A stretch of DNA of 64,000 nucleotides, from the NCBI GenBank assembly GCA_963847445.1, contig CAWJZV010000046.1, positions 1 through 64,000 on the forward strand. Direction: 5' to 3'. The stretch's first letter is position 1, and each line of letters opens with the position of its first letter. Below are positions 16,292 to 31,381 of the stretch, in pieces. This stretch comes from an uncultured delta proteobacterium. Its GTDB lineage: Bacteria > Desulfobacterota > Binatia > UBA9968. The notes beneath the pieces are model-generated. The model ran no database searches and was not told the origin of the DNA. It was given only the letters and a program-made list of their open reading frames with translations. Made by a program: the position numbers and the translations under genes.

Positions 16292-17153
16292 AGGTGCTAC
16301 CGCCAGCGATCTGGCTCAGAACAAAGCGGCTTTCCTTTGGGTCGGGCTCGACCTCGGCCGATCGATTCAAGAAACTCGGCCACGCGCCGAGCACCCGTTG
16401 TTCGAAAAGTTGAGTCTCTATGCCGCCTTCGATTCTTCCCGGTTGAACCACGCGGCCGTTGAGGATCGAATGGCCGCGTTGCACGACATAAAACTCTCCG
16501 TCGGGTAATAGCGGGATGGAAATTTTGAGTGTGGCGGCCGGCTTGCCGTCGCCGTCCCAGTCGTACACTGCGGGATCGTCGATCTTGGCGGGCAGGGCGG
16601 TCTCGTTGCCGCTCGATTTGTAGCCGATCCGTTCGACGCCGAGGTCGGCGCGATAGCGCCAGCCTTGGACGTCTTTGTCGAATTGCAGCGGATACGCGTG
16701 TCTGGCCAGCGCTGCGACAAACTTGTCGGGAAAGATCATTTTGATGAACTTGGAGTCGTCGAGCACGCGAAAGTCGCAGGTCTTATGGGTTTGGATTAGC
16801 CCGGCGCCGTCGCGCTTGATCTCAACTAGAGAAACTGACTTCGATGCCGACTTCGATGTCCCGAAGACCGGCACTCGGGTTGTCGACGCCATGATCATTT
16901 CCAGACGGTAGGTGCCGGGGGGAAGAAGCTGGTCTTCCTGGGCGCTGGAAACCTCCGCTAACAACCCGCAACTAATGACAAGTGCAGACACCCAGCGCGT
17001 TAGAAATCTCGCCCGATTGCGGCAATTGTTGAGATAATTATTGATCAGGTCAAAATTAGGCTTGTGCATTTGCTTCGCTAAAACGTCAGGGGATTGCGTT
17101 ACGTTGAGTCTAGGCGATGAAAGTGTGTTTGCTTGGCTTGCGACCATTTTCAC
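16260..17153 (-). CDS. Hypothetical exported protein; true start probably downstream of the ORF start
   Basis: Signal-peptide-like WVSALVISCGLLAEVSSA, beta-rich mature part, DWDGDGKP motif, two Cys in the mature part. Confidence 0.65.
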   Translation of the reverse strand: MKMVASQANTLSSPRLNVTQSPDVLAKQMHKPNFDLINNYLNNCRNRARFLTRWVSALVISCGLLAEVSSAQEDQLLPPGTYRLEMIMASTTRVPVFGTSKSASKSVSLVEIKRDGAGLIQTHKTCDFRVLDDSKFIKMIFPDKFVAALARHAYPLQFDKDVQGWRYRADLGVERIGYKSSGNETALPAKIDDPAVYDWDGDGKPAATLKISIPLLPDGEFYVVQRGHSILNGRVVQPGRIEGGIETQLFEQRVLGAWPSFLNRSAEVEPDPKESRFVLSQIAGGSTCETLLSAGKS

Positions 17154-17213
17154 ATCTAGCAGTTTTTTTCAGGACTACACTATCCGTCACAAATGAGTCC
17201 ATATTCGCCGGGG

Positions 17214-18043
17214 TCATCTGGCGAACCGATCGGCAAAGATGAGGAGACGTGTCTTTGACTTCGTTCCAAGCGCTGCTTTCCGGGTCGACGAGATCATGAG
17301 CTGCGTTAACATCCTGGTATTGGACTCTGTTCGGAAAGCGGTTGAGTAGGCGAGCCGTGCACAGCGGGACGAACGACCTTGTCTTTGCTGCCCTGAATCA
17401 CCAAGGTCGGGACATCGATCTCGGAGGCTCGCTCAAATGCGCTGAGTCCGAGCTGACGAACTTGCGCGATCGAGTTCAACGGCACGGTGATCTGGCGGAG
17501 CGCCTGTTGGATCTGCGGGTTTTCAAGGTCGATGTCCTTGAACATCCTTTGCAGACCGAGGCGGAAATCGATAGCGGAGAAGTCAGCGTATTTCAGTGGT
17601 TTGACGCGGCGAAAGAGGAAACGAACCACCGGCCATAACATCCTTAACCAACCTTCGCCGAAACTCCAAAACGGCGCGAGCAAAACCAGCCCCGCCGGCC
17701 GCTGTTCCAGCGCGGTGTGCAATGCCAAGGCGCCGCCCATGGAGTAGCCAACCAAAATGACCACCGAGTGCTGTCGTTTCAGTTCTACCATGGCATGAAT
17801 TGCGGCGTCTGACCAATCGTGAAAGCTCCGTTGCTCTAGGCTAGCGAAATCCGCGCCTAAGCCAGGGAGCATTAGCCCATGCACGGTCCAGCCGGCGTCT
17901 CTCAGAACCGTGCCGAGCGGGCGCATTTCCGCCGGTGTTCCAGGAAAGCCGTGAAGGAGCAGGGCGGCGGGATCGCCTCGCTTGCCACGAAACGATCGAT
18001 GTTCAACACCGTCGAATGGCTTTGGCAGAATAATTTCACTCAT
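17214..18043 (-). CDS. Alpha/beta hydrolase (carboxylesterase-like); frameshifted near the 3' end
   Basis: HGFPG, GYSMGG, GSKDKVV; catalytic His (AAHDL) in the shifted frame. Confidence 0.85.
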
Positions 18044-18220
18044 GACATGAAAGCTAAGTCTTGGTTGACCTCAATGTTCTTACAGGAAAATTTGAGCAAG
18101 GGGAATTAACGGTGTTTTTGCGCGTGACCGGCTTTCGAGATTTTGGGCTCTTTACCTGACTTGGCGAGATGGTAGTAACTATCAGTTGCAGAGAAATGAT
18201 CGACGCTAACTAACTTATCT

Positions 18221-19675
18221 ATGGATCATCAACATCTTATCCTACTGACGGGCGCCACGGGATACGTTGGCGGCAGATTGCTGCACGCCTTAGAGGATCA
18301 CGGTTATCGTGTGCGCTGCCTCGCCCGACGACCGCAAGCGTTGCGAGGACGGGCAGGGGTAAACACCGAGGTTGTATTAGGCGACTGCTTCAACCCCGAA
18401 TCTCTCGAGTGCCGCGTTGGCGGGCGTGCACACGGCGTATTATCTGGTTCATTCCATGGGTTCCGCCGAATCATTTGAAGAAAAAGATCGGCAAGCCGCC
18501 AGCAATTTTGCCAAAGCCGCGCACCAAGCTAAAGTTCAGCGGATCATTTACCTTGGCGGTTTGGGTGAAGGCGCGCTGTCGCCGCATTTACGAAGTCGCC
18601 AGGAGGTTGGCGAAGCTTTGAATACGCACGGGCGTCGAGGTGATCGAGTTCCGCGCTTCGATTGTCATCGGCTCCGGCAGCCTTTCATTTGAAATAATTC
18701 GCGCTTTGGTTGAACGGCTGCCGGTGATGATCTGCCCGGCTTGGGTATCGATAGCCGCACAACCGATCGGCATCGAAGACCTGGTTAGTTATCTGGTCGA
18801 AGCTTTGGATCTTCCCGAACAGGGCCGCCGTGTCATTGAGATCGGCGGTGCCGATCAGGTTTCCTATGAAGATATCATGCGCGAGTATGCCAGGCAGCGA
18901 AATCTGCGCAGATTGATGATTTCGGTGCCGGTGTTGACGCCGCGCTTGTCGAGTCTTTGGCTCGGTCTGGTCACTCCGGTTTACGCGCGTATCGGCCGCA
19001 AATTAATCGACAGCATCCGCAATCCCACGGTGGTGCGAGATCCCAGCGCGCTCCAGCTATTCTCCGTCCGGCCGAAAGGGGTTCGGGAAATGATCGCCCG
19101 GGCGATCGTTAATGAAGATCGCGAGTTCGCTGCCACCAAGTGGTCGGATGCCTTGTCTTCCCGAGGCGAGGAGGCCAGTTGGGGCGGCGTGCGCTTTGGT
19201 AATCGGATTGTCGATTCCAGGGAAGTGTCGGTGAATTGTTCTGCGGCAAGCGCATTTCGGCCGATTCGCCGCATCGGCGGCGAAACCGGCTGGTACTACG
19301 GCGACTGGCTCTGGCAGGTGCGGGGCTTTTTGGATTTACTGTTTGGCGGTGTCGGCGTGCGCCGGGGACGGCGCGACCCCGAACAGCTTCAGGTTGGCGA
19401 TGCCCTGGACTTCTGGCGTGTCGAGGCTTTTGAGAATAATCAAAGACTTCTGCTCGCCGCCGAAATGAAGCTGCCAGGCCGAGCGTGGCTGGAATTTGCC
19501 GTTGAGGACCAAGGGACAGAGCTCGTTGATTCGTCAAACTGCGATCTTCGATCCCATCGGTGTTGCCGGATTGATGTATTGGTACGTCTTGTATCCGGTG
19601 CACAAGTTGATGTTCGGAAAGATGCTGGCTGCCATTGCCGCGGCATGCCATGACGAGAAAACCAAAGCCCAATGA
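18221..19675 (+). CDS. SDR NAD(P)-binding protein with DUF2867 (YbjT-like); frameshifted
   Basis: TGATGYVG, YLVHSM, HLRSRQEV, LDFWRVE, AEMKLPGRAWLEF. Confidence 0.85.
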
Positions 19676-21072
19676 AAACGCTGGATTCTATTCTCAGCGA
19701 TCCCAGGCTGACCGTGCGCCGCTCCGGGGAGCCTGACACGGACGGAAGATGCGTGGTTTACTGGATGCAGCGCGCCCAAAGAGCAGTCGACAATCCGGCG
19801 CTGACGGCCGCCATTGACGCAGGTAATTGTCTGGGCAAACCGGTGGTGGTGTTTTTTCAACTGGTTCCACACGCGCATCACGCGAATTATCGCCACTATC
19901 AATTTCTCGTTGAAGGGCTTGCGGATATCGCCGCGGAGCTGCAAAAGCGAAAAGTCGGCTTGGTTCTGCGCCGGTACCCGGACCATGGGTTATTGCAATT
20001 TTGTTCCGAGGTGCGGCCTTGCTTGGTCATCGCAGATGAAAATCCATTGATGGAAGCGGAGCGCACGAAAACTAGAATCGCCGAGAAAATTATCCCGCCG
20101 TTTTGGACCGTGGATTCCGACGTGGTTGTGCCGTCAAAGCTACTTGCCAAAGAGCACTACGCGGCGCGGACGATCCGTTCGAAGATCCACGCATTGTTGC
20201 CGCAATTTATGCGAAAGGTAGAGAATCCGGCGGCGCAGTTTCCATGGCGCACCCCATCCCACGTGTTGTCTCTGGTGCCTGATCCATCGCTGCTCGATAA
20301 TTTTCCCATCGACCGCGCGGTTGCGCCGTCGGCATATTTCCGTGGCGGTTCCCAAGCAGCTAAGCGCTGTTTCGAACAGTTTCTTCGATCCCGGCTTAAA
20401 GGTTACGCCACACAGCGCAACAAACCCGATCTCGATGGCACAAGCCAGTTGTCGCCGTATCTTCATTTCGGCCATATCGGCGTGCAACAGGTGGCGCTCG
20501 CGGTGCAACGGGCGGATGCCCCAGCCCAAGACCGCAATGCATTCTTAGAGGAGCTGATCGTGCGCCGCGAATTGGCGGTTAATTTCGTTCGCTTCAACCG
20601 CAACTATGAAAACTTCGATGCTTGCGAGCCCTGGGCGGATGTCACGCACCGCATACATGTTCGGGACCCCAGGCAGTATCTTTACAGCGAGAAGCATTTG
20701 GAAGACGCCGAAACCCATGATCCACTATGGAACGCCGCGCAAAAGCAGATGGTGCTGACCGGTTGGATGCATGGTTACTTGCGGATGTACTGGGCCAAGA
20801 AGATTCTTGAATGGACGGAATCGCCCCAGGCCGCCTATCAGATTGCCGTTCGGCTCAACGACCGCTACGAACTGGATGGCCGCGATCCCAACGGTTACGC
20901 CGGGATCGCCTGGGCGGTTGTCGGCAAGCATGACCGGGCCTGGGGCCCGGAGCGGCCAATTTACGGAAAAATTCGTTACATGTCCTTTGCCAGTACATCG
21001 CGCAAGTTCAACAGCAAAGCTTATATCGCGCGCGTGGCGGCGTTAGAAAAAGGCGCGCTGTCGGATCCTTAG
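19672..21072 (+). CDS. phrB: Deoxyribodipyrimidine photolyase, class II CPD type
   Basis: VVYWMQRAQR..DNPAL, SQLSPYLHFG, GWMHGYLRMYWAKK, DGRDPNGYAG, ERPIYGKIRYMS. Confidence 0.93.
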   Translation: MKTLDSILSDPRLTVRRSGEPDTDGRCVVYWMQRAQRAVDNPALTAAIDAGNCLGKPVVVFFQLVPHAHHANYRHYQFLVEGLADIAAELQKRKVGLVLRRYPDHGLLQFCSEVRPCLVIADENPLMEAERTKTRIAEKIIPPFWTVDSDVVVPSKLLAKEHYAARTIRSKIHALLPQFMRKVENPAAQFPWRTPSHVLSLVPDPSLLDNFPIDRAVAPSAYFRGGSQAAKRCFEQFLRSRLKGYATQRNKPDLDGTSQLSPYLHFGHIGVQQVALAVQRADAPAQDRNAFLEELIVRRELAVNFVRFNRNYENFDACEPWADVTHRIHVRDPRQYLYSEKHLEDAETHDPLWNAAQKQMVLTGWMHGYLRMYWAKKILEWTESPQAAYQIAVRLNDRYELDGRDPNGYAGIAWAVVGKHDRAWGPERPIYGKIRYMSFASTSRKFNSKAYIARVAALEKGALSDP

Positions 21073-21548
21073 GTGCCGGTTCGCTGCGACGGCGCGAGCT
21101 TCGCCGAATTAAATAGTTCGTTCAAGATTTTGTGGCGATAGTCAAAGATTCGCTCAATATCGGGAGCGACCAGAAACTTCTGCACGATGCGTCCGCCGGG
21201 GACGGCATATTCGACGTTGTCGCCGACCAAAGTGCCATTGTCGCGTTCCTCGAAGGTATGTTCGTGAATCCAGAGAGAGTAGGGGCCTTTGGTTTGCCGG
21301 TCGACAAAACGATACGGTGGTTCCCAGACGGCGATCTCGCTTTGCCAGCGAATCGGCATGCCGCGAATGCGCAGCCGATAGTCTAACAGCGCTCCCTGCT
21401 TTATTCGGCTCGTCGCCGGCGTCAGAATCTCGAAGCTGAGCCATGCCGGCGTGAGGCGATCGAGATTGTCGGGGTTGGAGAAGAACTCGAAATATTTTGA
21501 CGCGTGGTTGCGGCAGCCAAAGCTTTTTCTCAGCCAGTAGGTCTTCAT
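21069..21548 (-). CDS. SRPBCC/START-like ligand-binding protein
   Basis: FFSNPDNL..LTP, FVDRQTKGPY..WIHEH, IFDYRH. Confidence 0.85.
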   Translation of the reverse strand: MKTYWLRKSFGCRNHASKYFEFFSNPDNLDRLTPAWLSFEILTPATSRIKQGALLDYRLRIRGMPIRWQSEIAVWEPPYRFVDRQTKGPYSLWIHEHTFEERDNGTLVGDNVEYAVPGGRIVQKFLVAPDIERIFDYRHKILNELFNSAKLAPSQRTGT

Positions 21549-21584
21549 GATAGTTTTTGTTAGCCCTCGAGCAAGTCCTGTCGC

Positions 21585-22552
21585 TCAGACATGGTTTCGC
21601 AGCATCAGTTCTTTAGGATTGGGTTCCAGGTAAAGCTGTCCTTGCAGGTATGCAACTTGGTATTTTCTCGTGTAGTGGCGGATCATTGTAATCGGCGCGA
21701 TCAACGGGATGAGCTGGCGGCGGAAGTCGCCGATTAGTTGGACCAGTTCTTGTCGCTCGGTGGCGGTCACCTGCTTGGAGAAGTAGCCCATCATGTGGTC
21801 CAGGACATTGGCATGGGTCTTCGCGGTCGCGTGAACGGCTAACGCCTCCATAAAAACCCGGCCGTAGTCATCGTATACCGCGGCAAGAGATCTTTGTTTT
21901 GCTGCCGCCACCAGGCGACCGAGTTGGCGATAGTGACGCTCGCTGTGCGCCAGCAATAAAAATTTGTGGCTGGTGTGAAAGCGCACCAGCGCCCCGAGCG
22001 GAGCTACGCGCCGAAGTTGCGTGCTGCCAGCGATGGTAGGCGAAGACTCTCTCGATGAAGTTTTCTCTAAGCTTTAAGATCGTTCAGCCGGCCCTCTTCT
22101 TCGACCGGCAAGAGCGGCCAGCGTTGCATGACCGCCGCGGCGAAAAGGCCGCGGCCTTGCCGCGCCGCCATGCCTTCTGGACATTATAGACTTTGACGCG
22201 CTCCATGCCGCAGCTGGGCGAGTTTTTCTTGAATACATAGCCCGATAATTGCTTGTTCAGCGATGTCGCGCACGCGCTTCGCGGCAAAGTCATGCATCGC
22301 CTCGGTCCAGTCTTGGCCGGACTTCTCTGCGATCATTCGCGGATGGTTCGGTGTGCCGACTAACCGCACGGTCTCGCGCGGCACGCCCATGCCGACTTCG
22401 ACTTCCGGACAGATCGGCACCCAGTCGACGAATTTGCCGAAAAGATCGGTGAGAAAGCGGTCGCGTTTGTGGCCGCCGTCGAAACGAACCTTTTGCCCAA
22501 GCAGACAGGCGCTGATCCCGAGTCTTCGGTTTAGTTGTGAAATTTTTTTCAT
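21585..22552 (-). CDS. DUF523 (thiouracil desulfidase-like) plus DUF1722 (YbgA-like) fusion; frameshifted
   Basis: GISACLLGQKVRFDGGH, CPEVEVGMGVPRE, KKNSPSCG, FHTSHK, HMMGYF, PKELMLRNHV. Confidence 0.88.
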
Positions 22553-22651
22553 GACAATGTTGATTATTGATAACATTTTCGATAGTAAACGTCAACTATA
22601 TCTTACTTGAATGGAAGTTCTTAGCTGTTCTGAGAGCGGGATTGCAACAGG

Positions 22652-23560
22652 ATGAAAATCGTACTTACCGGCGCCACGGGCATGATCGGTTCGTTTTTGA
22701 CCGAGCGGTTGTCGAAGAGTCATCACTCGGCTTGGTCTTGCTTGAGCCGCAGACCACCAGCGGAAGTTAGCGTGGCGAAAAAACAGTGGTTGGCGTGGCA
22801 GCCGGGTGCCAGCGGCGAGTGGGAGCGGGCCATCGACGGTGCCGATGCGGTGATCAATCTTGCGGGTGAGCCGATCGCTGGCAAGCGATGGACTCCCAAG
22901 CAAAAGGAAATTCTGCGCTCGAGCCGCATCGATGGGACCCAAGCGTTGGTGGATGCCATCGCTAAGGCCCAGGTCAAACCGAAAGTAATGATCAGCGCAT
23001 CGGCAGTGGGCTACTACGGTCCCCATGGCGATGAAGCTTTGAATGAAGACAGCAAACCCGGCGACGATTTTCTCGCGCGCCTGTGCGTCGATTGGGAAGC
23101 GCAAGCGCAGAAGGCGGAATCGCTTGGTGTGCGGGTTTGCTTGTTGCGCACGGGCATTGTCTTGGCTAAAGGCGAGGGTGCGTTAAAAAAGATGGTGCCG
23201 CCGTTCAAAATGTTTACCGGCGGGCCGCTCGGTTCGGGCCGGCAGTGGATGCCGTGGATTCATATAGACGATGAGGTCGGATTGATTCAGTTCCTAATCG
23301 AGAACGAGAACGGGCGCGGCGCATTTAATGGCACTGCGCCCAATCCGGTGACCATGGCAGAGTTTTCCAAGACTCTGGGTGGCGTATTGAACCGGCCGTC
23401 GTGGGCCAGGGTGCCGCCATTTGTGCTGGCGCTGATGGTCGGTGAGATGGCGGAGATGTTGCTGAACGGCCAGCGAGCGATTCCCGAGGCGGCGATCAAG
23501 CTCGGTTTCAAATTCAAATATCCGAATCTTAAGCCGGCCTTGGAGTCGTTGGGGCTTTAG
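22652..23560 (+). CDS. TIGR01777-family oxidoreductase (YfcH-like)
   Basis: TGATGMIG, INLAGEPI, SASAVGYYG, GSGRQWMPWIH. Confidence 0.92.
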   Translation: MKIVLTGATGMIGSFLTERLSKSHHSAWSCLSRRPPAEVSVAKKQWLAWQPGASGEWERAIDGADAVINLAGEPIAGKRWTPKQKEILRSSRIDGTQALVDAIAKAQVKPKVMISASAVGYYGPHGDEALNEDSKPGDDFLARLCVDWEAQAQKAESLGVRVCLLRTGIVLAKGEGALKKMVPPFKMFTGGPLGSGRQWMPWIHIDDEVGLIQFLIENENGRGAFNGTAPNPVTMAEFSKTLGGVLNRPSWARVPPFVLALMVGEMAEMLLNGQRAIPEAAIKLGFKFKYPNLKPALESLGL

Positions 23561-23605
23561 CAATTTGAGTCCATTGTGCGAATCTCGATCAGTTTTATTT
23601 AGGCA

Positions 23606-24532
23606 TTGAATATGGCCGTTACCTTGGAAAAATCTGCTGCCGATACGAGCGCCGAATATTTTGACGCAAAGCAAAAGCGCTTGGCCCACGCGATTGTCAA
23701 CGGCGATCACGAGAGCGCCGAGCAGGTCACGGGCGAACTTATATCGGCGCAGCAGACGCTCGGCGATATTTATCTCCAAGTTGTCACCCCGGCGCTCCAG
23801 GGTGTCGGCGAGTCATGGTGCCGTGGCGATATCGGCGTCGGTGAACAGAAACTGGCGACGGAGATCGTGATCGGCCAGATGGACCGCCTGCGCGCGCACT
23901 TTGCGCCTCCAGCTAGGCGCTCGCTTTACCGCGTAATGGTAGCCTGCATCGAAGGCGAGCAACATTTCATCGGCGCGCGCATGACGGCCGACCTGTGCGG
24001 CGCACGCGGCTGGAACGTCGACTTTCTCGGTCCCAATGTGCCCAACGCAAGCGCTCGTCGATATGGTTCATCGGCGTCACCCGCAGGTGGTCGGGCTGTC
24101 GGTGACGATGGCGCACGGGGATTGAACATGTTCGTTGGGTGGTCGGTGAGTTAGCAAAGTCGGCGCCCGATGTCCGGATGGTCATTGGCGGACAGGCGAT
24201 GGTCGACAATTCCAGCGTGAAAAATCTTAGCCGGCGTTGTGAGATTGCTAAGGATATTCATTACCGGTGTCGGTTTGATCGGCCGGCTGTTGCGCGCCGA
24301 TCGGCCCAAGTCAGTGCTCAAAGAATATCAAATGGTGCTGGCGCGCCGCGTGCGCGATTTGCGGACAAAACGGGGATGGACTCAAGAGCATTTGGCCGAG
24401 GTGACTCAGGTGGCGCGCGCCTGCATCATCGCCGTCGAAGGCGGCAAGCAAAACGTTTCCATGGATATTCTGGTGCGCATGGCCAACGCGTTGGAAGTGC
24501 CGCCGGAGACATTGTTGTCAGCGGACGGGTGA
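23606..24532 (+). CDS. Cobalamin-binding domain protein (four-helix cap plus Rossmann fold) with probable C-terminal XRE HTH; CarH/LitR-like regulator; frameshifted
   Basis: GESWCRGDIGVGEQK, EGEQHFIG (ExH), FLGPNVP, VVGLS, IGGQA; then RVRDLRTKRGWTQEHLAE...VEGGKQNVSMDILVRMANALEV. Confidence 0.8.
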
Positions 24533-24558
24533 GTTCTGCTCATAAGGGGAGAGATAGG

Positions 24559-25684
24559 ATGAAGCATCAAGGATTGACGATGTACAGCGGCATCGACACT
24601 GGCCAAGCGGCGTATCGCGCCGGTATCAGATGACAAGCCGAGCCGGCTATCCAGTGGCGCCGGCACTGAAGCAGTGATGTTTGCCGATGGCCGTTGACGG
24701 AGCTTCTCGGCATCGATCACAGCGCCGCGGTGGAAAGTGCCCTGCGGCAAGCGTTGCTCGACCCTGTGGCATCGCTTACGGCCAATCCGGGCAAGCGTAT
24801 CCGGGCGCAACTCGTGGCGATGACCTATCGTCTGTTTCACGATGACCGCGCGGTGTCGTTGACCGCAGCGAAGCAGTGCCGGGATTGCGCTGAGGTCGTT
24901 GAGCTGATGCACGCCGGTTCACTGATTGTCGATGACATCGAAGATAGCAGCGAGATGCGCCGCGGGCGGCCGGCACTGCATGCGCAGTACGGAGTTCCGC
25001 TGGCGCTCAACGCGGGTAATTGGCTCTACTTTTGGCCGTTCGAGCTGCTCAAAGACGCCGGCTTCGCGGCTGAACACATGGCGTGCCTGTATGAGCGCTA
25101 TAACCGCACGCTGTTGCGCGCCCACTTCGGCCAAGGTCTCGATCTTGGCGCCAAGGTGCCGCAGTTGCCGCAGCAGGTCGGTGGCGGAAGTGTGTCTGGC
25201 CGGGATGACTCTCAAGACCGGCGCTTTGATGGGGTTCGCGGCGGCGCTGGGCGGAACTGTGGCAGGCAAACCCCAGCGCGTGATTGAATCGCTCGATGCC
25301 TTTGGCGTCGACCTTGGCATCGCATTGCAAATGTACGATGACCTGGGAAATGTCATCGGCAAATGCGATCCGCAAAAGCGTTTTGAAGACCTATCGCTAT
25401 CGCGCCCTTCTTGGGTGTGGGCTTGCGCGGCAAATGCAACCGATGCTTATGAGTACGAAACGTTTCTCCATGCTGTCGCCGAGTTACCCAACGCCAAGTC
25501 GTTGGAAAGCTGGATCGCCTCTCATGATCTCATCCCAATGACCCGCGCCAGCGCGCGCCAGCATCTGGATCGTGCCTTCGATAGGCTGAAACAGCGCCTG
25601 TGCGAGTCGGACATAGCTTGGTCATCGCGAGCCCTTCACGAACTGCGCCAGTTGGGCGAGGAGATTGCGGTCGCTTATGGATAA
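24559..25684 (+). CDS. crtE: Polyprenyl (geranylgeranyl) diphosphate synthase; frameshifted
   Basis: GKRIR, ELMHAGSLIVDDIEDSSEMRRG, GQGLDL, KTG, QMYDDL; directly upstream of crtI. Confidence 0.8.
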
Positions 25685-27223
25685 GCCGCGCGTCGCAGTC
25701 ATCGGCAGCGGCTTCGGCGGTCTTGCGGCCGCCATTCGCCTGCAAGCGGCTGGCTGCCACACTATTATCTTTGAAAAGCGCGATCAGCCTGGCGGCCGCG
25801 CCTATGTCTACCGCGATAACGGTTTTACCTTCGATGCCGGCCCAACGGTCATCACCGCACCGCAGTGTCTCGAAGAGCTGTTCACGGTCGCCGGCAAATC
25901 GATGCAAGATTACGTCGAGCTGATGCCGGTCAAGCCGTTTTACCGTTTGTTCTGGGACGATGGTTACCAGTTCGATTACTCGGATGACGATAACGCGCTG
26001 GAGAAACAAATTCGCGCCAAGTCGCCGGCCGATTGGGCGGGTTATCAAAGATTCTTAAAATACTCGCAAGAAGTCTTTCGTGAAGGTTACGAAAAGCTGG
26101 TTCATGTACCGTTCTTAAGTCTTTCGAGCATGGTCGGCGGTGGCACCGCAGTTAGTCCGACTCGAAGCTTACCGCTCGGTCTACAGCGTGGTCGCCAAAT
26201 ATATTCGCGATCCCCATCTGCGCCAGCTGTTTAGTTTCCATTCGCTCTTAGTCGGTGGCAATCCATTTACCACGACGTCGATTTACACGCTGATTCATTG
26301 CCTCGAGCGCAAGTGGGGAGTTTATTTCCCCAAAGGGTGGCACCGGCAATCTGGTTTGGGCGCTGGTGAAATTATTCCAGGAGCTGGGCGGTGAGATTCG
26401 CTTCAACAGTGAGATTGCGCGGATCGTCACCCGCGACGGCGTGGTGACGGGTCTGCAAACCAACACCGGCCGAGAAGAAAGATTCGATCTGGTCGTGAGC
26501 AATGCCGATGTGGTCCACACCTACGATTGGCTGCTCAAAGACGAACCGCGTGCGGCCGCGACAGCGCGACAGCTTGGGAAGAAAAAATACAGCATGTCGC
26601 TGTTTCTCATTTACTTCGGCACCAAGCGGAAATATCCCAACTTGCAGCACCATAACGTCATCTTCGGACCGCGCTACCGTGAGCTCTTGGGCGATATTTT
26701 TGAACGTGGCAGGCTGGCCGACGATTTTTCGCTTTATCTGCACGCGCCGACGCGTTCCGATCCGACGCTGGCGCCGCCGGGCTGCGACGCCTTCTACGTG
26801 CTCTCGCCGGTGCCGCATCTGGGTAAGCTTGCGATCGATTGGAAAGTCGAGGGGCCAGCGTTACGCGGCAAAGATTTTAAAGTATTTGGAGCAGCGCTAC
26901 ATGCCTGGGTCTCGACTGCGTCGATCGTCACGCAGAGAATTTTTACCCCGGCCGATTTTAAGAGTGAGCTCAACGCCCATCTTGGCTCGGCATTTTCCTT
27001 GGAGCCGCGTCTGATGCAGAGCGCCTATTTTCGCGTGCACAATCGCGACCGAAATATTCGCGGTCTTTATTTCGTCGGCGCCGGCACGCATCCGGGCGCC
27101 GGCATTCCCGGGGTGGTCAATTCCGGCAAGGCGACGGCCAATTTGATTCTTGAAGATCATGAAATCCGTATTGGCAAGATCGGCTGTCAAAACGACGGAA
27201 GTGTCCTATGCCTGATGCGCTAA
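25677..27223 (+). CDS. crtI: Phytoene desaturase; frameshifted
   Basis: VIGSGFGGL, FDAGPTVIT, FHSLLVGGNPF, SAFSLEP.L.QSAYFR.HNRD, GAGTHPGAGIPGV. Confidence 0.95.
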
Positions 27224-28165
27224 CCCCGGAAGTGCGCGCGGCGCTCGATGATTGCCGCGATATCATCACCAAGGGCTCGAAGAGCTTCTCCCTGGCCGCA
27301 AAGCTTTTCGATGCTGCAGACGCGCGACGCGGCGGTGTTTCTCTACGGCTGGTGCCGCTACTGCGACGATCAAGTCGATGATGCCGGCAAAGCGGATGAT
27401 CGGGTTGAGCTTGGAAGCGCAGGCTTAAGGCCCTTAAAGAGAAAACCGCTTCGGCTTTCTCGTTTGCGCCGCAGCAAGAACCGGTGTTTATCGCGCTGCA
27501 ACATATCGTGCATCGCTATGGCATACCGGCGCACTACGCGCTCGAATTGATCGAAGGCATGGCGATGGATGTGCGCGGGACTCGATACCGGACTTTGCGC
27601 GATCTCTTGCTCTACTGTTACCGGGTTGCCGGTACTGTCGGTTTAATGATGTCCCATGTGATGGGGTTGCGCGACGAAAGCGCGCTGCGAAACGCCGCCG
27701 ATCTTGGTATTGCCATGCAGCTCACCAATATCGCTCGCGACATCACTGAGGACGCCGGGATGGGGCGCATCTATCTGCCGCTGGCCTGGCTCGATGAAGC
27801 AAAAATTCCTCCTGATCAAATCAGCGCGCCGGAGAATCGTGACAAGTTGGCGATGTTGACCCTGCGTCTGCTCAACGAAGCGGATCGTTACTATCGATCG
27901 GGCGATGCCGGCTTGTGGCATTTGTCGTTTCGTTCAGCCTGTGCGGTGTCGGCGGCGCGCCATGTTTATTCCGAAATCGGTGCGCTGCTGGTTAAACGCG
28001 GGGCGCGAGCTTGGGATCAACGCACCTATGTTACCGGAGCGCGCAAGATTTGGGTGGTCGCTGCGTGGCGTCTTGAGTCTCGTGCGCTCGGCGCCGGCGC
28101 GGCTGTTTCAACCCTGGTCGCCTGGCGCGTTGAGAACCATCTGGAAGTATTCCAATGTTCAATGA
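27208..28165 (+). CDS. crtB: Phytoene synthase; frameshifted
   Basis: GSKSFSLA, LYGWCRYCDD, YCYRVAGTVGLM, LGIAMQLTNIARDI.EDA..GRIYLP. Confidence 0.93.
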
Positions 28166-28216
28166 GATCAATCTTGACACGACATGCCGGCAACCGAACG
28201 GATGTGGCGGAATCCA

Positions 28217-29497
28217 ATGAGCCGTTGCGAAGTTGATTTAAAACGCCGGCGGGTTGTCGTCACCGGGGTCGGTGTCGTGAGCCCGAACGGTATGGGTGCC
28301 GATGCCTATCAAGATTCTCTGCGGCGAGGTAGCAGTGGTATCGATACGATCTCCAGCTTCGATGCAGGCGCACTTTCTTGCCGTGTCGCCGGCGAGGTTC
28401 GGAATGTTGAGGCGGAGAATGTCCTGTCCGCCAAAGATATCAAACGCACCGGTCGCGCCGTGCATCTGGCGGTCGCCGCCGCGCAGGAAGCGCTGCGCCG
28501 CGCCCGAGTTTGTCCGGCAGCCATGAGCTTGGCGGAGAAACAGTCCTGGGGCGTGATCCTTGGCAGCGGCGGCGGCACAGCCGACTTCGTCGAGGAACAG
28601 TATCGTCTCTACTACAGCGATCAGTTGCGCAAAATCAGCGCCTACAATGTGTCGAGTTCGACCATCGGCTCGCTCTCGAGCGAGATTTCGATCCATTTTG
28701 GTTTTCATGGACCGAGCCATGTAATTTCCACCGGCTGCACCAGCTCCACCGACGCTCTCGGCTACGCCTTTAATCAAATCCGTTTCGGCTTGGCCGATCA
28801 TCTTGTCACCGGTGGCGCCGACGCGACGATTACGCCGGCGATCATGCAGGGGTTCTGTGTCATGCAAGCGGTGTCGACATCGCACAACGACGAGCCGGCA
28901 CGGGCGTCGCGGCCGTTCGACCGGAGCCGGGACGGATTTGTCCTCGGCGAGGGCGCGTGGATTTTGATTCTCGAGGAGCGCGAGTTGGCGCTGAGCCGCG
29001 GTGCAACGATCTATGCCGAGGTGCGCGGTTATGCCTCGACATGCGACGCTTATCACCGTGTCCGACTCGAGCCGAGCGGCGAGGAGCCCGCCCGGGCGAT
29101 GAGCTTGGCGATCGAAGATGCGCGGCTGGCCAAAGACGAAGTCGGTTACATTGCGCTGCACGGCACCGCAACAGTTCTGAATGATAAAACGGAGACCCGC
29201 GCGACCAAGTTATGCTTCGGCAAACGGGCCCGTGAGTTGCCGATGAGTTCGGTCAAGTCGATGATCGGCCATCCTCAAGGGGCATCGGGCGCGGCGGGCG
29301 TCATCGCCGCGATCTGTGGTATGAATGGCGGCTTCTTGCCGCCGACGATCAATCTGGATGAGTCCGATCCGGAGTGCGATCTCAATTACATTCCCAATCA
29401 GAGCATCGCCAAAGCCACCGATATCGCGCTCTGTAATTGCATCGGTTTCGGTTCGAAGAACTCCGCCTTAGTCATCGAGCGTGGAGCGATGGCATGA
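28217..29497 (+). CDS. Beta-ketoacyl-ACP synthase (FabF/KAS II-like paralog)
   Basis: VVVTGVG, STGCTSSTDA (active Cys), RPFDRSRDGFVLGEG, HGTAT, KSMIGH, GFG. Confidence 0.9.
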   Translation: MSRCEVDLKRRRVVVTGVGVVSPNGMGADAYQDSLRRGSSGIDTISSFDAGALSCRVAGEVRNVEAENVLSAKDIKRTGRAVHLAVAAAQEALRRARVCPAAMSLAEKQSWGVILGSGGGTADFVEEQYRLYYSDQLRKISAYNVSSSTIGSLSSEISIHFGFHGPSHVISTGCTSSTDALGYAFNQIRFGLADHLVTGGADATITPAIMQGFCVMQAVSTSHNDEPARASRPFDRSRDGFVLGEGAWILILEERELALSRGATIYAEVRGYASTCDAYHRVRLEPSGEEPARAMSLAIEDARLAKDEVGYIALHGTATVLNDKTETRATKLCFGKRARELPMSSVKSMIGHPQGASGAAGVIAAICGMNGGFLPPTINLDESDPECDLNYIPNQSIAKATDIALCNCIGFGSKNSALVIERGAMA

Positions 29498-30201
29498 AGC
29501 GAAGTTACGACAAAGAGATGATGGATTTCACCGGCAATAGCCCGGTGCTCCTGGCGGATGATCTGCGCAACTTGCGCCTGCTCAACCGATACCTACGCGG
29601 TTCGCACAGCGTCATGCTGGCGCTCTGGCGGGTGCTTGGAAGCGAGCCGCTCAAACCAGTTGTCTATTCTCGACGTCGGCACGGGGAGCGCCGATATCCC
29701 GGCGGCGATTTACGCCAGGGCGAGGCGGAGCGACATGTCGCCGCCACGATTTTCGACATCGAAGCCGACCCGATAACGGCGCGCATTGCAGCCCATCGAA
29801 CCCAGCAGCACGCTGAGATCAAGATTATTCAAGGCGACGCCGGCGCGCCGCCGTTTTCCCCCGGCTCTTTCGATTTCGTCGTCGCATCGCAGTTTCTCCA
29901 TCACTTTTCCGAAGCGAAAATAATCGATCTGATAACGCAATGGGCCAAGCTTGCCCGGCGCGCCATCATCATCAGCGATCTGGTGCGACATCCCCTCGCC
30001 TATTATGGCATCCGTTGGCTGACGCAGCTGACGACGCGCAACCTAATGACACTCACCGATGCGCCGCTGTCGGTGCGGCGTGCGTTCACGTTCAATGAAT
30101 GGCGTGAGTTGTTGTACCAAGCCGACGTTGGATCGGTGGAAATATTTTCGGTGTTTCCCTTTCGTATGGCTGCGGTGGTGCGGCTGGGAGGCCGTCAATG
30201 A
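29494..30201 (+). CDS. Class I SAM-dependent methyltransferase; frameshifted
   Basis: E.MD...L.LLNRYL.G, ILDVGTGSADIP (alternate frame), FLHHF, DAPLSVRRAF. Confidence 0.85.
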   Translation: MKRSYDKEMMDFTGNSPVLLADDLRNLRLLNRYLRGSHSVMLALWRVLGSEPLKPVVYSRRRHGERRYPGGDLRQGEAERHVAATIFDIEADPITARIAAHRTQQHAEIKIIQGDAGAPPFSPGSFDFVVASQFLHHFSEAKIIDLITQWAKLARRAIIISDLVRHPLAYYGIRWLTQLTTRNLMTLTDAPLSVRRAFTFNEWRELLYQADVGSVEIFSVFPFRMAAVVRLGGRQ

Positions 30202-30350
30202 AGGAGTGTGACGTCGCCGTTGTCGGTGCCGGACCCGCGGGTTGTGCTACGGCGATCTCCCTGGCGCAACGCGGCTTTCAGGTCGCGCTGATCGACCGCG
30301 CGATATTTCCGCGCGATAAATTGTGCGGCGATGCCTCTACGAAGGTGTGA
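30198..30350 (+). pseudogene. 5' stub of an FAD-dependent oxidoreductase (geranylgeranyl reductase-like); not in the ORF track
   Basis: Translates MKECDVAVVGAGPAGCATAISLAQRGFQVALIDRAIFPRDKLCGD, then stops at 50 aa with no recognisable continuation. Confidence 0.8.
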
Positions 30351-30493
30351 AGCTGACAGCGGGTCAGAATCAATCGCGGCGCCGGCGTTTGGACATGAAT
30401 TCCGGCGGCGATCGAGTTTCTGCGGTTAGCCCGGTGTGTCTGCGGTCCGCTGCTGTGATTGATGAGGGTTTAAATTCATTTGGAGGAGCAACG

Positions 30494-31381
30494 ATGCACT
30501 TCGTCGCATGGGGTTTTTTAGTTTTACAGGCGCTGATCGTGGTCGCGAGCTTGTTGGGTTACGGGATTTTTACTTCGCGTCCCGATCTGTTGATGCAGGT
30601 CGATCCCCAAGCGCGTTTCTTTACCTGGGCGTTTCACGGTTTCGCCGTCGGCAATATGCTTTTCGGCGGTCTTGCGGTGGTGGCCGACGCCTTGCTCAGA
30701 AATCGCCTCGCGGCGTTATACGCTTTTGCTCGCCGTTTATGCGGTGAGTTTGGCGAGCGAACTCATGGGCACCGGCTGGGGCGTGCCGTTCGGGCCATAC
30801 TCTTATACCAGCTCTGCTCGGTCCCAAGTGGTTCGAGCTTGTGCCGCTGTTGATTCCGCTCAGTTGGTTCACCATGAGTTGGGCTTGCTGGACGATGGCT
30901 CTGCCAGCATCGTTCGGGTGTCATCGCGATCATGCTCGCTACGGTCTTGTTGGTTTCTTGGGATCTGCTGCTCGACCCGGCGATGAGCAAGGTAACCAGT
31001 TATTGGGTCTGGGGTGAAACGGGGAGCTACTACGGCATGCCGTGGATGAATCTCTTCGGTTGGGGTGTCACTGGATTGGTGCTGTTTATCGTTCTCAACC
31101 GACTGGTGGCGCGACCGCAGACTTCGATGCGTTTCGCCCTGTGGGTCTACGGAGTCAATTTCGCATTCCCCCTGGGATTTTGCATTCTCAATCAGTACTG
31201 GATCGCGGTGGGCGCCGGAGTCGGCGGCTTGTTAGCTCGGCTGGTTCGCCTGTGGGGCATCTTTGGCTGCCAACGATCGAGTCGGATATTCGGCAAAAAA
31301 TGCTCATCTGCAAAAACTTTAAGCTCGATCTTGGCAAATACTGCACAGCATGATTTGAAGACTTGCGCCGGTCGATGTTAG
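30494..31381 (+). CDS. cruF: Carotenoid 1,2-hydratase, CruF-like (DUF422); frameshifted, end approximate
   Basis: Multi-TM; ELMGTGWGVPFGPYSY, VPLLIPLSW, WDLLLDPAM, YYGMPWMNLFGW; GGAGGA RBS. Confidence 0.8.

Follow-up and report, generated by a model that had tools for sequence, protein, structure and literature searches.

The window analyzed here is a stretch of 64,000 nucleotides from an uncultured delta proteobacterium (GTDB lineage Bacteria; Desulfobacterota; Binatia; UBA9968; contig CAWJZV010000046.1 of assembly GCA_963847445.1). On its plus strand, between an SDR gene with a DUF1731 domain and the carotenoid genes crtE-crtI-crtB, which are followed by a beta-ketoacyl synthase and a methyltransferase gene (Pfam), lies a putative regulator gene whose product carries a cobalamin-binding domain (CBD) ahead of an XRE-type helix-turn-helix (HTH) domain. 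This gene order agrees with an earlier note on this DNA, which had placed the regulator directly upstream of crtE-crtI-crtB. A scan of positions 22450-24750 predicted a single terminator-like site, inside the SDR gene, and none between the SDR gene, the regulator, and crtE.

In the assembly, the pieces of this one gene are spread over three reading frames between 23606 and 24532, with the middle Rossmann pieces (..PQVVGLSVTMAHG.. and ..VIGGQ..) falling in two other frames according to the three-frame translation. When aligned at the DNA level with L002, L003, and L004, three intact orthologues from genomes of the window's own genus, the gene showed exactly three single-base insertions and no further indels. 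Once these are discounted, the gene starts with the ATG at 23612 and has a corrected length of 918 nt; the net shift of the three insertions is +3, and the first and last frames are identical. The base at 24047/8 is absent from contigs of three independent public sequencing runs (X1, X3, and X7), the bases at 24115/6 and 24257/60 are likewise absent from the X1 and X3 contigs, and not one of the covering contigs of the three runs retains any extra base. These contigs are mostly 95 to 99% alike to the window and come from relatives, not from the same strain (the best word share of any public run with the window was 0.33); a further run, X4, reached just 6 of 30 bins and missed all three positions of the insertions. 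When we compared positions 22272-30332 with the related locus L027, we counted 23 insertions and 4 deletions with lengths not divisible by 3, i.e., ∼3.3 per kb, a density equal to that in the regulator, and splits of the same type occur in crtE, crtI, crtB, the DUF523/DUF1722 gene, and a nearby NAD-binding/DUF2867 gene.

Taken at face value, the assembly does carry three frameshifts, which would make the regulator a pseudogene that is dead in this organism. We consider this very improbable, given that crtE, crtI, crtB, and other neighbors are broken alike, nearly always by insertions, that the extra bases are missing from all close relatives in three public runs, that the indels add up to +3, and that no premature decay is found elsewhere in the gene. 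Hence, we regard the frameshifts as assembly errors and the regulator as intact in the organism; the single fused gene of ∼305 amino acids, which the earlier note had proposed on condition that three indels be repaired, is borne out by the orthologue alignment and the run contigs. Frameshifting indels, nearly all single-base insertions, occur at ∼3.3 per kb across positions 17000-31000, and any annotation of this genome based on open reading frames (ORFs) will be fragmented from end to end.

The first piece of the gene (ORF 23606-24154) matches Pfam B12-binding_2 (E value of 6.2e-12) and the first 40 positions of B12-binding, and the last piece (ORF 24239-24532) matches HTH_31 (4.7e-11; 43.3 bits, cutoff of 27) and HTH_3 (2.1e-09; 37.7 bits, cutoff of 23), as well as HTH_19, all above the curated cutoffs, which identifies the output domain as an XRE (Cro/C1-type) HTH. 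No MerR domain was found in the regulator by Pfam, its place as DNA-binding domain being taken by the C-terminal HTH_31/HTH_3. For residue numbering and structural modeling we used P0001, a 93%-identical orthologue of the window protein. Its AlphaFold2 model, built from a 55-sequence alignment with a mean predicted local distance difference test score of 89.6, consists of a four-helix bundle, then a Rossmann fold, and, starting at residue 235, an HTH of five helices. When the first ∼215 residues were compared with known structures using Foldseek, the best match was CtMerR (PDB 8jbs_B; template modeling [TM] score of 0.86, root mean square deviation of 2.4 Å), followed by Thermus CarH (8c31_D; TM score of 0.84, with CarH structures ranging from 0.80 to 0.84), while the methyltransferase corrinoid protein 7xcn_N reached merely 0.53. 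A phmmer search of PDB sequences returned 8jbs (2.9e-17), photocobilins (∼5e-15), and CarH (6e-10), and the tail of the protein matches small XRE regulators such as C.AhdI and SinR.

The classic B12 motif ExHx2Gx41SxTx26GG is intact (E116-x-H118-x2-G121, S163-x-T165, and G192-G193 in P0001, with the same letters in the window frames), and W69, H118, G140, P144, S163, and G193 are invariant in the 55 sequences. The cap is different. In Thermus CarH, according to PMC10442372, W131 stacks on the adenosyl group, E141 hydrogen-bonds to it, H177 is the lower ligand, and H132, which tetramer disassembly requires, takes over as the upper ligand once photolysis has occurred. The aligned segment of the window protein reads W69-C70-x8-Q79-K80, so that His132 is replaced by Cys and E141-H142 by Q-K. 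Both this substitution and the domain order, a CBD followed by an XRE HTH instead of the MerR-type layout of CarH/LitR, had been read correctly in the earlier note. Of the light-responsive CBD signature used by SignatureFinder (GxxW, EH, GxxH, and GxxxP; PMC11796333), three elements are present (GESW, GEQH, and GPNVP), and EH is replaced by QK.

To place the protein among its relatives, we searched with its first 147 residues: 53 of the 54 longer relatives are 266 to 330 amino acids long and contain PF02607, PF02310, and an HTH_3-type domain in one chain. A scan of one genome per prokaryote species yielded 129 stretches encoding a relative, of which the best 80 were kept. Every one of these 80 loci contains a family match, namely 77 full-length single ORFs (two of which, L029 and L065, lie in loci cut at a contig end), two split ones (L037 and L048), and one contig-end fragment (L060). 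According to their record titles, the relatives come from Binatia-like metagenome-assembled genomes (labeled delta proteobacterium, Thermodesulfobacteriota, or Syntrophobacter), Chloroflexota/Dehalococcoidia/SAR202, Bdellovibrionota, Rokubacteria/Methylomirabilota, Planctomycetota (including Candidatus Uabimicrobium amorphum), Acidobacteriota, Fimbriimonadales (Armatimonadota), and others, and Pfam confirmed the three domains in all 12 regulators chosen from other phyla. The family profile retrieved 3,115 proteins with E values of up to 1e-30 from 1.84 billion representatives at 50% identity; among the best 150 of these, nearly all are single end-to-end matches of ∼280 to 330 amino acids, and the HTH part is included in 142 of the 145 that could be counted. 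The window pieces match the profile at positions 1-146, 176-215, and 215-304, and its orthologues at 2-304 in one ORF, so that the window gene, too, has B12-binding_2, B12-binding, and HTH_3 in this order, end to end in one chain. The reversed layout thus belongs to a large and widespread family and is not peculiar to the window. We found no literature description or bench test of a CBD fused to an XRE domain; the P2TF paper lists 37 proteobacterial transcription factors with a B12 domain, 35 of them with MerR. As separate observations, one relative genome contains a second, distant match to the cobalamin-binding part (G022:C659:808-1197; 26% identity in a 360-amino-acid frame), which could be another kind of CBD protein, such as a MerR-type CarH, and genome G004 encodes a 308-amino-acid protein with an N-terminal XRE HTH (L014, 4450-5376, minus strand) that matches the HTH part of the family profile (E value of 7e-09) and is inserted between the DUF523 and SRPBCC genes in this relative alone.

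The altered cap is a different matter. Among the 77 full-length ORFs, the EH position reads EH in 63, EK in 9, QK in 4, and GH in 1, and the Trp is followed by His in 41, Cys in 25, Arg in 6, and other residues in 5, while the lower His and the Pro of GxxxP are present in all 77. Similarly, 129 of the 145 countable sequences among the 150 best representatives have EH, 49 have WH, and 141 have the lower His. The earlier note had treated architecture and altered motif as marks of one distinct type and had taken homologues with the canonical EH as a sign against its reading; the architecture is indeed shared, but its tie to the altered motif is not supported, as such homologues form the large majority. 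Since the family mostly keeps W-H-x8-E-H, the reversed layout alone points to an ordinary adenosylcobalamin (AdoCbl)-type photoreceptor module with a swapped DNA-binding domain. Judged by these residues, the family at large appears to be a canonical AdoCbl-type sensor, in which the W-C...Q-K of the window is a minority state. The family is thus probably a straightforward analogue of CarH, and the Cys and Lys cap variants are the part that could surprise.

To gain an idea of how these variants arose, we inferred a maximum-likelihood tree of the 77 proteins, a quick tree with midpoint root, several flagged long branches (including L049), and support from the Shimodaira-Hasegawa-like approximate likelihood ratio test only. 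One clade of 24 proteins (support of 100) contains every crt-linked member. Within it, L049 (W-R, Q-K) is sister to 23 W-C proteins, among which EH members are found on several branches, EK occurs in two separate subclades, and the QK group of the window (L025 to L027) is nested inside an EK subclade. The EH state requires a minimum of five changes across the whole tree, which may be read as three changes from His to Lys, one from Glu to Gln within an EK lineage, and the GH of L095. All Lys variants among the 77 loci lack a His after the Trp, although three or four events are weak evidence for a connection. The ratios of nonsynonymous to synonymous substitution rates among the QK/EK orthologues L025 to L028 are 0.08 to 0.43 for the cap, 0.17 to 0.42 for the Rossmann part, and 0.10 to 0.39 for the linker and HTH, indicating purifying selection and thus a sensor module that is not decaying. 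On this tree, the W-C/Q-K cap is a derived, lineage-specific variant inside the crt-linked clade.

The genetic neighborhood follows the same division. At least one crt gene lies just downstream of the regulator in 22 of the 24 clade loci, and the contigs of the other two end within ∼400 bp of the regulator. On the upstream side, SDR/DUF1731, DUF523/DUF1722, SRPBCC, and often photolyase genes recur. No crt linkage was counted among the 53 loci outside the clade; four of them (L054, L061, L063, and L099) have a CrtI- or CrtB-like ORF within 10 kb, which we discounted given its identity of 29 to 40% and distance of >2 kb. The linkage of relatives to crt genes, which had been expected for homologues in general, therefore holds within the clade and not outside it. 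Outside, some members adjoin SDR/DUF1731, DUF523/DUF1722, SRPBCC, DUF1295, or mfd genes, e.g., regulators of Planctomycetota and Fimbriimonadales located beside DUF1295 and SDR genes or beside SDR/DUF1731 and mfd (L050, 7939-9797; L059, 8826-9713 and 10747-14256). Neighbors such as DUF1295, SDR, and mfd (transcription-repair coupling factor) fit a theme of light or photo-oxidative stress for the wider family. The genome of the window contains a PduO-type adenosyltransferase gene and two matches to PF02607 (B12-binding_2), the regulator and one in a 558-amino-acid open frame, which argues against a MerR-type CarH in this organism. Past crtB, the beta-ketoacyl synthase and methyltransferase genes are found in the window (28184-30201, identified by Pfam) and in L014 (14343-19901), where genome G004 then adds a 387-amino-acid ORF whose first residues read like a dinucleotide (FAD)-binding motif, a 286-amino-acid ORF with a hydrophobic N terminus, and two more ORFs; the product of the cluster could be a modified carotenoid or related lipid.

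We next looked at the ∼100-bp divergent promoter region ahead of the putative operon. An alignment of the DUF523-to-SDR intergenic regions from 12 clade loci and the window revealed a conserved block, GTCAA-n-TATA-n-n-T-n-AC, and a matrix built from it scores 33.4 at positions 22587-22610 of the window, with a runner-up of 14.3 in the whole 64 kb. Of the 24 clade loci, all but two have the palindromic site, and 10 of these 22 had played no part in training the matrix; the two loci without a hit lack upstream DNA. Most EH and EK members have a near-perfect inverted repeat, GTCAAnTATAnTTGAC, and in L035 the site is a perfect 24-bp palindrome. In loci without the intervening SDR gene, the palindrome directly precedes the regulator, at a distance of 43 bp (L042) or 189 bp (L039), and four loci from other phyla (L052, L061, L062, and L063) have related sites 2 to 94 bp ahead of their regulators. 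In the genome of 7.19 Mb, the palindrome pattern has one match, the site in this promoter region, and a control pattern has none; there is no signal of a wider regulon, since allowing one mismatch gives 5 extra matches versus 9 for the control. Of the two operator regions proposed in the earlier note, 22553-22651 holds the conserved palindrome, while 18044-18220 contains neither a matrix match of ≥8 nor a pattern match with 0 or 1 mismatch. Tandem 11-bp direct repeats of the CarH operator type were not found in 22540-22660. Read by eye, and as a weak indication, the palindrome and a second conserved inverted repeat nearby contain TTGAC-like hexamers that could act as −35 boxes for a pair of divergent promoters. 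With this arrangement, the palindrome would span both the region where the plus-strand operon starts and the −35 box on the minus strand, a classic position for a repressor. In the Bdellovibrionota-type loci (L069 to L101), we observed a different conserved block, which includes a TG-n-TA-type element and lies ∼100 bp ahead of the regulator genes, where the GTCAA palindrome was not found; these regulators are divergent to a DnaJ-domain gene and adjoin a Methyltransf_9 (DUF1698) gene, with no crt genes nearby. The features of the window are listed in Table 1.

Table 1. Features of the regulator locus in window coordinates
Feature	Position	Strand	Basis or remark
Regulator gene, 305 codons plus stop after discounting three inserted bases	23612..24532	+	B12-binding_2, B12-binding, XRE HTH
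Four-helix cap subdomain, Pfam B12-binding_2	23675..23890	+	Pfam
Cap motif W69-C70-x8-Q79-K80, in the place of Thermus CarH W131-H132-x8-E141-H142	23816..23851	+	Alignment
Rossmann B12-binding subdomain, read in three frames in this assembly	23930..24256	+	Pfam and translation
Lower axial His118 in EGEQHFIG, then LSVT and GG	23963-23965	+	Motif reading
C-terminal XRE-type HTH, HTH_31/HTH_3	24338..24511	+	Pfam; model helices 235-301
Inserted base 1, assembly error	~24047	+	Orthologue alignment, public-run contigs
Inserted base 2, assembly error	~24116 (placement 24115/24116)	+	Orthologue alignment, public-run contigs
Inserted base 3, assembly error	~24257 (placement 24257-24260)	+	Orthologue alignment, public-run contigs
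Operator-like imperfect palindrome GTCAAC-TATA-TCTTAC	22591..22606	.	Conserved across crt-linked clade, sole genome match
Second conserved inverted repeat ATGTT..N10..AACAT, ~30 bp from palindrome, overlapping putative promoter hexamers	22557..22576	.	
DNA photolyase gene, near the regulator in part of the clade	19672..21072	+	
SRPBCC gene, divergent unit	21069-21548	-	
DUF523/DUF1722 gene, split, divergent unit	21585-22552	-	
NAD-dependent epimerase/SDR gene with DUF1731, first gene of putative operon	22652..23560	+	
crtE, polyprenyl synthase, split by assembly indels	24694-25684	+	
crtI, amine-oxidase-type desaturase, split by assembly indels	25665-27223	+	
crtB, SQS_PSY, split by assembly indels	27208-28236	+	

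Taken together, we lean toward a reading of the protein as a corrinoid-dependent, light-released repressor of the divergent promoter region, similar to CarH but with an XRE output domain and a palindromic site. From the fold, the retained motifs, and the gene context, we infer that it binds a corrinoid, responds to light, and represses transcription from the palindrome as its own site. The N-terminal CBD (four-helix cap and Rossmann subdomain) would hold the corrinoid via His118. In the dark, the corrinoid would drive the formation of an oligomer, whose C-terminal XRE HTH domains would bind the palindrome, possibly together with the second inverted repeat, and thereby repress both the SDR/DUF1731-regulator-crtE-crtI-crtB operon and the divergent unit of the DUF523/DUF1722 and SRPBCC genes. 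As the regulator gene lies inside the repressed operon, it would also be autoregulated. Photolysis of the upper Co ligand in the light would loosen the oligomer and lift the repression of carotenoid synthesis. The gene content is in line with the regulons of CarH/LitR proteins, which include carotenoid, photolyase, and short-chain dehydrogenase genes (PMC9758184). Given the altered adenosyl cap and the change from His132 to Cys, the corrinoid form and the photochemistry may differ from those of CarH.

Several observations weigh against this CarH-like repressor. W69 is present, but the residues at +10 and +11 of the Wx9EH cap motif are Q-K, and a review describes Wx9EH as shared by every CarH homologue studied so far and as critical to the binding of AdoCbl (PMC8156234). 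Cys70 stands where Thermus CarH has His132, the driver of tetramer disassembly. At the DNA level, the window's own subclade has a degenerate right half-site (TCTTAC versus nTTGAC), the halves of the palindrome are TTGAC-like and overlap plausible −35 elements, so that part of the conservation may reflect a promoter, and a scan of 22450-24750 with the sigma-70 consensus returned no promoter-like site (1.4 expected). Some of these points would suit a corrinoid-independent repressor like CarA, in which the module, with Q-K in place of E-H, would neither need nor bind AdoCbl and would serve only as an oligomerization scaffold, while light control, if any, would come from another factor such as an antirepressor or a sigma factor: the B12 independence of CarA is largely explained by its missing Wx9EH (PMC8156234), the SignatureFinder signature for light-responsive CBDs requires EH (PMC11796333), and the half-site is degenerate in the same subclade. 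We nevertheless regard a CarA-like repressor as unlikely, since W69, His118, GxxxP, and the full ExHx2G..SxT..GG motif are invariant, purifying selection acts on both the cap and the Rossmann part in the QK/EK lineage, the apparent changes from His to Lys on three separate branches do not look like random drift, and the PF02607 search of the genome found no other CarH-like sensor.

The Cys at the Co-ligating position of His132 and the altered adenosyl cap could also speak for a corrinoid or redox switch that is no photoreceptor at all and reports cobalamin availability or, via Cys70, the Co/thiol redox state and adjusts the operon to it; some nonphotoreceptors, such as MetH and methyltransferase corrinoid proteins, share the two-domain module. 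However, the neighbors serve in light protection (carotenoid synthesis and photolyase), the fold matches photoreceptor CBDs more closely than methyl-transfer corrinoid proteins, and sister lineages with the same gene context keep EH, which makes a switch of this kind quite improbable. A bolder version of the CarH-like repressor, which we put forward as a speculative and rather doubtful idea, is that the crt-linked clade is a B12 photoreceptor with rewired cofactor chemistry, in which the Cys would give a thiolate-Co bond after photolysis or thiol/redox gating, joined in the lineage of the window by the Gln-Lys cap. The apparent three changes from His to Lys would have taken place with all lower-face B12 contacts unchanged. 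If true, it would mean an upper ligand other than adenosyl, or light-driven derepression without the EH pair held indispensable in CarH.

CarH serves as the model of B12-based light sensing and has found wide use as an optogenetic part, and, to our knowledge, all characterized transcription factor versions of B12 light sensors are MerR fusions with the Wx9EH cap. The family described here has the same sensor module wired to an XRE domain at the opposite end in many phyla, which implies that the cofactor state is coupled to DNA binding in a different geometry. Its crt-linked clade offers natural experiments at residues thought to be essential, i.e., His132 to Cys and EH to EK or QK. Moreover, a genomic survey of the Binatota had noted carotenoid genes but no regulator for them (PMC8262859), and the clade would provide a first candidate; a term search of the available text of that survey found no mention of CarH, LitR, photoreceptor, or cobalamin.

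Compared to known systems, the window protein is closest in sequence and structure of its CBD to CtMerR of Chloracidobacterium thermophilum (PDB 8JBS; PMC11796333), with which it has GxxW, GxxH, and GxxxP in common, but CtMerR has EH and a MerR domain where the window protein has QK and an XRE domain. According to database mining in the same source, light-type CBDs occur with HTH domains fused to either terminus, and its available text describes no XRE-fused member; since the SignatureFinder filter requires EH, it would exclude the QK and EK members. Photocobilins (PDB 8J2W/8J2X/8J2Y; PMC10979010) have a related CBD that is likewise placed N terminal to another module, which in their case is a biliverdin-binding domain (with a diguanylate cyclase in one of them) and not a DNA-binding domain. 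CarA, the B12-independent CarH paralogue of Myxococcus xanthus, is a carotenoid repressor with a CBD that lacks Wx9EH (PMC8156234); compared by description, it has an N-terminal MerR domain, whereas the Trp and all lower-face motifs are retained in the window protein. More remote are AerR/PpaA and the SCHIC domain of AppA, B12-binding-like sensor modules that also control pigment genes but have no DNA-binding domain and act through CrtJ/PpsR. The match to the AppA SCHIC domain is weak (Pfam E value of 0.14; PDB, 2.7e-4), and the similarity is much lower than that to CarH-type CBDs.

CarH/class I LitR proteins (Thermus thermophilus, PDB 5C8D/5C8A/8C31; M. xanthus) have the same two-subdomain cobalamin-binding module, with the lower His in ExHxxG, the cap Trp, and adjoining carotenoid genes. 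In contrast to the window protein, their DNA-binding domain is MerR type and N terminal, all LitR classes in PMC9758184 being described with an N-terminal HTH, and E141-H142 and His132 stand in place of Q-K and Cys. The candidate operator of the window is a 16-bp palindrome, while CarH binds tandem 11-bp direct repeats, nAnnTnnACAn (PMC8156234). The motif pair that defines CarH is Wx9EH and ExHx2Gx41SxV/Tx22-27GG (PMC8156234). Lacking a MerR domain, the EH residues, and an operator of direct repeats, the window protein falls outside the CarH/LitR family as defined. It shares their sensor fold, however, and probably their logic, likely combining sensor and repressor in one protein as CarH does.

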